Sequence record: OR844767
Direction: 5' to 3' (one strand)
Origin: Escherichia phage ECO111 5-P
DNA length: 59,207 nt
Shown here: piece by piece, positions 11,393-11,987 of the stretch
Layout of the letters: every line of letters starts with the position of its first letter
Position numbering within the stretch: the first letter of the stretch is position 1
The notes under the pieces: generated by a model
What the model saw: the letters and a program-made list of their open reading frames with translations, nothing else
Databases searched by the model: none
Told to the model about the DNA's origin: nothing
Made by a program: the position numbers and the translations under genes

Positions 11393-11698
11393 ATCTTTTT
11401 TCATATTATTTGAGTAACCGCACATAAAAGCGCCACCGATCGCCACGCCGGGCCGCATTGCACCGCCACGCCCCACGGCCCCCGCCCCGGCACACCGCCA
11501 AACGGCACGCGGCGCCACGTCCTAAACCTTTGAATTCTATACGAAAAACCGACGCCAACCGGGCCAAATCGGGCAGATCGGCGCATAGGTTAAGTCATTG
11601 ATTTATAACGATTTGTACAAAATCCCACCAAAAACGACAACCGCCCACAACGGCAGGCCGCGCCGGGCCTGACTTTCTCTATAAAAATTCCCGACGGG

Positions 11699-11915
11699 CT
11701 TACTTGAAAAACCTAGCCTGCCCAAAATTTTTGAACGACTGCGCCTGTCCTTACTTCAAAAAGTTACCCGGTTGCGGTTTTTATCCACCAGCGTCGGGCC
11801 AATTTCACCCGGCTGTCCGGCTTACTTGAAAAAGCTGGCCGACGGAAGGGTTGGCGTTCCGGGCTTACTCGAAAAAGTCAGCCTGCCCCCGCTCGGCCCC
11901 GCGACGCCGGGTCTT
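11699..11915. repeat. five dispersed copies of a 13-bp motif CTTACT(T/C)(G/C)(A/G)(A/G)AAA in a 0.6 kb non-coding region
   Basis: copies at 11699-11711, 11750-11762, 11821-11833, 11864-11876, 11903-11915, each preceded by a G/C-rich triplet; no convincing ORF across the region. Confidence 0.6.
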
Positions 11916-11987
11916 ACTTCGGAAACCTCGCCGACAGAAACTAAACTGGAGTTTCACCCGGTCATCATAATTGCCGGATGAAATGAA

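Follow-up and report, generated by a model that had tools for sequence, protein, structure and literature searches.

Escherichia phage ECO111 5-P (record OR844767; 59,207 nucleotides, all of which were analysed and are called the window here) carries between two divergent promoters a non-coding region of 0.6 kb, in which five co-oriented copies of an asymmetric repeat unit stand beside a perfect consensus site for integration host factor (IHF). This module of units plus IHF consensus is specific to Chi-like phages (Casjensviridae). Judged from sequence comparisons, the array of units is very probably a genuine, conserved cis element that binds a protein, and as far as our search shows it is a conserved, undescribed variant of the familiar repeat-plus-IHF nucleoprotein site. 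The array is almost certainly not the cohesive-end site (cos). Among the mechanisms considered we rank first, tentatively, an IHF-assisted nucleoprotein boundary or switch element between the two operons.

Repeat units

The initial annotation of this region listed five copies of a 13-bp motif, at 11699, 11750, 11821, 11864 and 11903. A search of the window found CTTACTTGAAAAA exactly at 11699 and 11821 and with one mismatch at 11750 and 11864, and these four positions stand. The fifth copy, CTTACTTCGGAAA, has three mismatches to CTTACTTGAAAAA and lies at 11913-11925, not at 11903. Elsewhere in the 59 kb the sole match with at most two mismatches was at 45955 on the minus strand, which is chance level: 0.83 such matches are expected genome-wide, and five were reached in no shuffle. 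Repeat finding returned a five-member family of 29 nt with starts at 11695, 11746, 11817, 11860 and 11909. All five copies are on the plus strand, with start-to-start spacings of 51, 71, 43 and 49 bp, whose helical phasing, judged by eye, is not clearly above chance.

The 13-bp motif is a real repeat, but it covers only the 5' half; the complete, asymmetric unit is about 25-28 bp long and reads ggCTTACTTSAAAAA-SYTNNCNGGYTG, and the consensus of 61 units from 13 genomes is ggCTTACTTgAaAAAcctagCcGG.tg. The G/C-rich bases that had been noticed ahead of each copy reappear in this consensus as 'gg' before CTTAC. The five copies in phage Chi read CTTACTTSAAAAASYTACCCGGYTG. An A-run and a T-run flank R1. 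The five units of the window are as follows.

11697..11723, plus strand: R1, GG CTTACTTGAAAAA CCTAGCCTGCCC
11748..11774, plus strand: R2, TC CTTACTTCAAAAA GTTACCCGGTTG
11819..11845, plus strand: R3, GG CTTACTTGAAAAA GCTGGCCGACGG
11862..11888, plus strand: R4, GG CTTACTCGAAAAA GTCAGCCTGCCC
11911..11937, plus strand: R5, the most degenerate unit, GT CTTACTTCGGAAA CCTCGCCGACAG

Conservation and distribution

By its sequence, the window is the genome of a Chi-like phage (Chivirus, Casjensviridae) in circularly permuted form. Over the 1.8 kb around the array, identity is 97-100% to Chi-like phages of Salmonella and Escherichia and about 92% to phage Chi. The Chi reference record gives the strand opposite to the window, and the physical ends of Chi join at window position 6532|6533.

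Conservation of the motif in related genomes had been named as a check, and the same array was indeed found in 11 other phages of at least nine genera. These are Chi and STP11; the Redjacvirus phages PSTCR9 and PatoteraRojo; Serratia phage Smarc5, Jacunavirus JC01 and Zhonglingvirus SAP012; Enchivirus Enc34, Yonseivirus Soft and Kokobelvirus Kokobel1; and Dunedinvirus JS26, which has six copies of GGTACTTGAGAAAGCCAGCSAGACC. An additional group of Casjensviridae-like contigs in IMG/VR has four copies. The array always occupies the same slot, flanked by the leftward operon and by the rightward operon with a DUF7609 gene in first place, and in the same orientation, with three to six co-oriented units. 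The spacings of 51, 71, 43 and 49 bp are identical in the window, Chi, STP11 and Smarc5; in other relatives they are 31-83 bp, with one of 168. Constraint is concentrated in the cores, where 86% of the alignment columns are invariant among seven Chivirus/Smarc5 sequences, compared with 40% in the second halves of the units and 26% in the spacers. The core is retained even where the neighbouring protein is down to 21-37% identity.

Copies of the array in hosts or plasmids were looked for and can be discarded. The region had no match in the PLSDB plasmids, and a scan of 185,579 bacterial and archaeal species (one genome per species) for the array pattern of two cores 18-48 bp apart gave no match in Enterobacterales and 12 matches in all, every one in an unrelated taxon. 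A literature search on the motif and on Casjensviridae origins returned no description of repeat sequences, an array or an origin in these phages. Because no open reading frame (ORF), RNA family or hairpin accounts for the repeats, as detailed below, we regard them as protein-binding sites.

Promoters and IHF site around the array

Both promoters that the initial annotation had placed at the borders of the region were recovered by a promoter scan, at 11392-11363 on the minus strand and 11988-12016 on the plus strand. The same scan found no promoter inside the array region and none reading into the array. The elements nearest to the array are the following.

11363..11392, minus strand: P_L, leftward early promoter, TTGACG-18-TATTAT (promoter scan), kept in other genera
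11591..11603, minus strand: perfect IHF consensus site AATCAATGACTTA, within the most AT-rich 40 bp of the region
11988..12016, plus strand: P_R, rightward promoter, TTGACA-17-TATTGT (promoter scan), driving the DUF7609-led operon
12059-12430, plus strand: DUF7609 gene (gp62 of Chi), first gene of the rightward operon

Of the 12 phages scanned, 11 have a P_R-like promoter, and in JS26 none was found. In all genera compared the array lies directly upstream of P_R and is co-oriented with it, as upstream sites of a regulator would be. A fixed geometry or an overlap with the promoter is not seen: from the last repeat to the -35 element of P_R there are 28-107 bp in the various genera and 716 bp in phage FSL SP-030, and in the two Redjacvirus phages the array abuts the -35 element.

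The IHF consensus lies about 96 bp left of R1, in the 40-bp tract 11585-11624 with 75% A+T. Five matches to this consensus occur in the whole window, where 1.0 is expected. In STP11, Smarc5, SAP012 and JC01 a match precedes the first repeat by about 94-110 bp, and in Enc34 by about 240 bp; Soft has one as well.

A proposed boundary or switch element

The length and asymmetry of the unit, together with its constant orientation, point to a single protein molecule on each unit and to a polar assembly in which IHF would be the architectural partner. We propose that each unit would be occupied by one molecule of a sequence-specific protein, perhaps an early protein of the phage or perhaps a conserved factor of the host, that IHF would bend the adjacent DNA, and that the nucleoprotein complex so formed would act as a boundary or switch element. 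Such a complex might insulate the two strong divergent promoters from one another and might time the rightward operon ('middle' in JS26) relative to the early operon. It would raise fitness without being essential.

In JS26 the array marks a border of gene expression: gp01-13, from the genome end to the array, are early and expressed at 5 min, and gp15-45, right of the array, are middle genes (PMC8754663; bioRxiv 10.64898/2025.12.19.695335). We favour a role as boundary or switch because the constant position and orientation, this early/middle border and the dispensability of the array all fit it.

The array is dispensable by three independent lines. Proteus phage Saba has no copy of the motif in its 60 kb and has 246 bp between the divergent genes; synteny is retained, as are the cos 12-mer, the DUF7609 gene, the replication module and an orthologue of gp2 (37% identity). 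FSL SP-030 keeps R1-R3 and has an HNH endonuclease gene in place of R4-R5, with the array 716 bp from P_R. In JS26, gp14 (6676-6918) covers five of the six units; by transposon-insertion sequencing (Tn-seq) it is outside the 47 essential genes, and the essential gp15 is flanked by non-essential genes (bioRxiv 10.64898/2025.12.19.695335). Being dispensable in this way fits a modulatory element.

The early operator of phage Mu, with the sites O1-O3 and an IHF site between the divergent promoters Pc and Pe, is a known system of this kind. The likeness consists of repeated asymmetric protein sites and an IHF site between divergent promoters, and in Mu they control early transcription. However, the Mu sites overlap the promoters and have a known repressor, whereas the units here lie upstream of P_R only.

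Several observations weigh against a boundary or switch. No binding protein was identified, and the neighbouring DUF7609 protein is without a recognisable DNA-binding fold. P_R is near-consensus and should need no activator. The units are clear of the promoter except in Redjacvirus, and simple repression is not obvious. FSL SP-030 was isolated and propagated with 716 bp between its remaining units and P_R, the promoters of Saba are comparable in the absence of the array, and the temporal data come from JS26, a phage of another genus with a weaker P_R. A geometry-dependent activator of P_R is unlikely given the near-consensus promoter and a distance that varies between 28 and 107 bp; the 716 bp in the propagated FSL SP-030 also count against one.

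The candidate regulators (gp1 with its HTH_37 domain, gp3, the early proteins and host factors) include none that could be assigned from sequence alone. The DUF7609 protein was rejected as the binder, as its AlphaFold model (pLDDT 71) had no fold match in the PDB and Saba has the gene without the array. This protein is 98-100% identical across Chivirus, compared with about 85% for the upstream DNA; its N-terminus is disordered and its DDDEV tail acidic, and no solved fold matches it. It has 117 remote homologues, for which one genomic context was examined, on a 1-kb contig. JS26 gp15, a distant homologue of the DUF7609 gene, is essential by Tn-seq (bioRxiv 10.64898/2025.12.19.695335).

A possible replication origin

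The initial annotation offered origin iterons or sites for a DNA-bending protein as fallback readings. Both are still viable given the conserved units and the adjoining perfect IHF consensus, but the origin specifically is weakened, and we judge it rather unlikely. In that case the units would be iterons for an initiator of the phage, such as the PrimPol/superfamily 3 (SF3) helicase gp2 through its C-terminal part, and IHF and the short AT-rich tract 11585-11624 would aid opening. The array resembles the iteron origins (lambda ori, P1 oriR, pSC101 and RK2 oriV, and P4 ori/crr for alpha-type primase-helicases) in its co-oriented, asymmetric, non-coding repeats of about 20-25 bp; the IHF site and the 75% A+T 40-mer adjoin them. 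Several direct repeats of about 17-25 bp, as in iterons, are present, five here and three to six in relatives. The site is non-coding and lies between divergent operons. An origin would be required by the P4-alpha/NrS-1-like primase-helicase (PrimPol/SF3) that the phage encodes, and a DnaA box with one mismatch is found at 11781.

The spacing of the units speaks against an origin. In place of the regular, helically phased, close spacing of iterons, usually two helical turns, the units are 51, 71, 43 and 49 bp apart here and irregularly 31-83 bp apart in relatives, apart from the one interval of 168. The array is not AT-rich: its GC content is 0.47-0.61, with at least 47% GC in the 100-bp windows. 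No initiator gene was recognised beside it, the PrimPol/SF3 helicase gene being about 6 kb away. Saba has the gp2 orthologue and the rest of the replication module and no array, the ORF over the JS26 array is non-essential, and FSL SP-030 has lost two units. The DnaA-like box is not conserved either. It overlaps a RecBCD Chi octamer in the R2-R3 spacer:

11781-11789: near-DnaA box TTATCCACC, one mismatch (8/9)
11785..11792, minus strand: Chi octamer GCTGGTGG

Neither of these two is kept across genera, and they are probably not core features of the array.

A better-looking candidate for an origin exists beside the gp1 and gp2 genes. At 6029-6290, seven copies of GGTTACAAG in both orientations, with at most one mismatch, surround the most AT-rich 200 bp hereabouts (29-35% GC), and this cluster adjoins the helix-turn-helix gene gp1 and the PrimPol/SF3-helicase gene gp2. 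With its more canonical combination of repeats and AT-rich DNA next to the helicase gene, the cluster looks more origin-like than the array. At the equivalent place Saba has a different repeat, CATTTTTTAACCG.

Possible stepwise genome entry

The array might instead work during DNA injection, by analogy with phage T5, although we consider this improbable. The co-oriented, polar units would halt genome entry after the first ~9%, comprising the early operon and P_L, and P_R and the remainder would enter only once early proteins are made or release the stop. Measured from the cos end at 6533, the array is at 5.17-5.40 kb, which is 8.7-9.1% of the genome. In JS26 the change from early to middle genes occurs across the array, and gp01-13 receive Tn5 insertions far above the rest of the genome even before selection, a hotspot that the authors read as first-injected DNA (bioRxiv 10.64898/2025.12.19.695335). 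The injection-stop site (iss) of T5, a cis-acting site, lies in a large untranslated region rich in repeats, 7.9% from the entering end (bioRxiv 10.1101/866236). The array is likewise in an untranslated, repeat-rich region, some 8-9% from the presumed first-entering end, with the earliest genes set apart from the rest. Delayed entry would also explain the timing without a repressor at time zero, both P_L and P_R being good sigma-70-type promoters, and a stop signal could well be non-essential.

On the other hand, two-step transfer is not known from any Chi-like phage, and the authors of the JS26 work account for the hotspot without a cis signal. In T5 the iss is part of a long terminal repeat and has been proposed to act via eight ordered DnaA boxes (Davison model), whereas the ends here are cohesive; an ordered set of DnaA boxes is absent here, where one near-match was found that is not conserved. 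Saba again does without the array, and no candidate for a stopping protein is known. If the array were such a signal, stepwise injection, so far a peculiarity of T5, would extend to a second, unrelated family, with a simple and mutable 25-bp signal.

RNA and coding alternatives

It is very improbable that the repeats act at the RNA level, as a repeat-containing non-coding RNA or as terminators, or that they encode a small protein. The grounds for considering this are that ORFs have been annotated in the region (gp63 of Chi, gp14 of JS26 and gene 016 of Soft), that JS26 gp14, over its array, was placed in an early expression cluster, and that R1 stands between an A-run and a T-run. As noted above, no promoter reads into the array. 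A structured RNA was rejected with folding z-scores of -1.3 and +0.3 for the two strands, no better than shuffles, and in Rfam no match was below E = 0.6, the single match scoring 14.9 bits against a gathering score of 100 bits. A hairpin, cruciform or terminator within each unit was rejected by a flank complementarity test, in which the mean best stem was 4.98, the permuted level being 5.03. The initial statement that the region holds no credible ORF is borne out: the largest ORF of the region, which is the one scanned, had no match in Pfam or PHROGs, and the reading frame is not conserved, the gp63 frame of Chi being shared with the window ORF over 29 amino acids only. Thus the region shows neither a conserved fold nor an Rfam family nor a conserved frame, and the coding reading was dropped as well.

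GenBank records leave the region mostly unannotated. The small ORFs that have been annotated in the module, gp63 of Chi (5430-5603 of the Chi sequence analysed), gp14 of JS26 (6676-6918) and CPTSoftv3_016 of Soft (1577-1681 of the Soft sequence analysed), differ in their placements and strands within it, and gp14 of JS26 is mostly composed of repeats. These ORFs are probably annotation artefacts.

The units were also considered as sigma-70 promoters with TTGAAA as the -35 element, and rejected because a consistent -10 element is absent. R3 of FSL SP-030 alone fits by eye: its surroundings read TTGAAA-17-TATTTT and could drive the HNH homing-endonuclease gene, which is at 1296-1820 of the FSL SP-030 sequence analysed.

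Packaging and the cos site

That the array is the packaging site, as cos, as pac or as a displaced, cosB-like array bound by the small terminase subunit TerS, has next to no chance of being right. The initial annotation had named 11400-11987 or 6029-7003 as a candidate for the packaging site; the first is not supported, and the second contains cos at 6521-6532. By primer extension, Hendrix et al. determined the termini of Chi as 12-nt 5' extensions, GGTGCGCAGAGC (PMC4342425). We located this cohesive end at window positions 6521-6532 as GCTCTGCGCACC, the reverse complement of GGTGCGCAGAGC. Mapping of the genome ends had been named as a check on the array, and by these published ends 5.2 kb separate the termini from the array, which starts at 11697, so that the mapped cleavage site lies neither in the array nor within about 200 bp of it.

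The cosB region of phage lambda contains the sites R1-R3 and the IHF site I1 and abuts the nicking site. This layout of repeated sites plus an IHF site is what the array resembles, but the array is 5.2 kb from the mapped cos, and cos here has IHF consensus sites of its own, at 6365-6377 and 6461-6473, which are two of the five in the window. A further likeness is a conserved element, AAGTACCTTTTTGAAA, at 6556-6571, 23 bp right of the cos 12-mer. A version of it is found at the same or nearly the same distance from cos in Chi, PSTCR9, Stilesk, Soft, Proteus phage P2-71, Enc34 and Saba. It has TAC...TTGAAA in common with the repeat core, and the version in Chi approximates the repeat with a 4-nt insertion. 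We nevertheless rejected the idea that this cos-adjacent TTCAAAAAGGTACTT element is a further, sixth repeat copy, since it is kept in Saba, which lacks the array, and its second half shows no co-variation with the array units outside Chivirus. The two IHF sites on one side of cos and the AAGTACCTTTTTGAAA element on the other are probably subsites of cos.

Significance of the array

Chi-like flagellotropic phages are under development against Salmonella, Klebsiella, Proteus and Serratia, and hardly any of their cis-acting control DNA has been mapped. The 0.6-kb region is left blank by most annotators or filled with doubtful small ORFs. A family-wide and strongly constrained array, predicted to bind a protein, together with its IHF site provides a 25-bp probe, GGCTTACTTGAAAAACCTAGCCGGTTG, for finding the binder. 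The array is also a precise place at which to ask about the start of replication, the timing of the early-to-middle transition and stepwise entry, questions raised by the Tn-seq and RNA-seq of JS26. For genome engineers, a seemingly empty intergenic 'safe harbour' would be functional DNA here, with cos elsewhere (6521-6532).

Other features of the region

The region had been described as GC-rich. This does not apply to the region overall, which has a GC content of 0.53 (11300-12060) against about 0.56 for the genome, but solely to 11400-11499, with a GC content of 0.66 and a GC skew of -0.36. The features left of R1 are these.

11430..11520, no strand assigned: GC-rich spacer block, C-rich on the top strand, conserved within Chivirus (footprint)
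11535..11548, plus strand: motif B1, TTCTATACGAAAAA, a block invariant in the conservation footprint
11654..11671, plus strand: G+C-rich inverted repeat CAGGCCGCGCCGGGCCTG (terminator-like scan), directly ahead of B2
11675..11688, plus strand: motif B2, TTCTCTATAAAAAT

The pattern TTCTMTAYRAAAAA shared by B1 and B2 has just two matches with at most one mismatch in the window, at 11535 and 11675, and two others with two mismatches. Blocks equivalent to B2, TCTMTAYAAAAAT, lie upstream of the arrays in PSTCR9, SAP012, Enc34 and Kokobel1. The B1/B2 motif may be a decayed or degenerate copy of the repeat core. On the other side of the array, the 50 bp from R5 to the -35 element of P_R (11938-11987) are near-invariant in Chivirus and contain CCGG-N12-CCGG. 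One copy of TTTCACCCGG lies in this stretch and another at 11803. The stretch may be a separate regulator site.

Copies of the RecBCD Chi octamer GCTGGTGG number 26 in the window, 13 on each strand, where 1.6 are expected. No copy lies at 673-11784; coming from the cos end at 6533, one meets the first copy in the R2-R3 spacer, in the active orientation. Enrichment of Chi in some phages has been described before (PMC3784561, PMC12315714).

Chi-like sequence also turned up in database records labelled as Listeria, Enterococcus, Staphylococcus (among them the 147-kb 'phage SA1', GU169904) and Xanthomonas phages; these records are probably contaminated or mislabelled.

A 19-mer, ACGCACGCCGCGTATATCA, has six copies in the window, where 0 are expected: 6770, 6843, 6891 and 6950 on the plus strand and 8972 and 11371 on the minus strand. 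The copy at 11371-11389 forms the spacer of P_L, and that at 8972 is upstream of the gene at 7748-8902. Among the four plus-strand copies near cos, three are without -35 and -10 elements, and the 6843 copy has TTGATG as a -35 element and no -10. These near-cos copies look like operator-only or decoy sites for a putative regulator.

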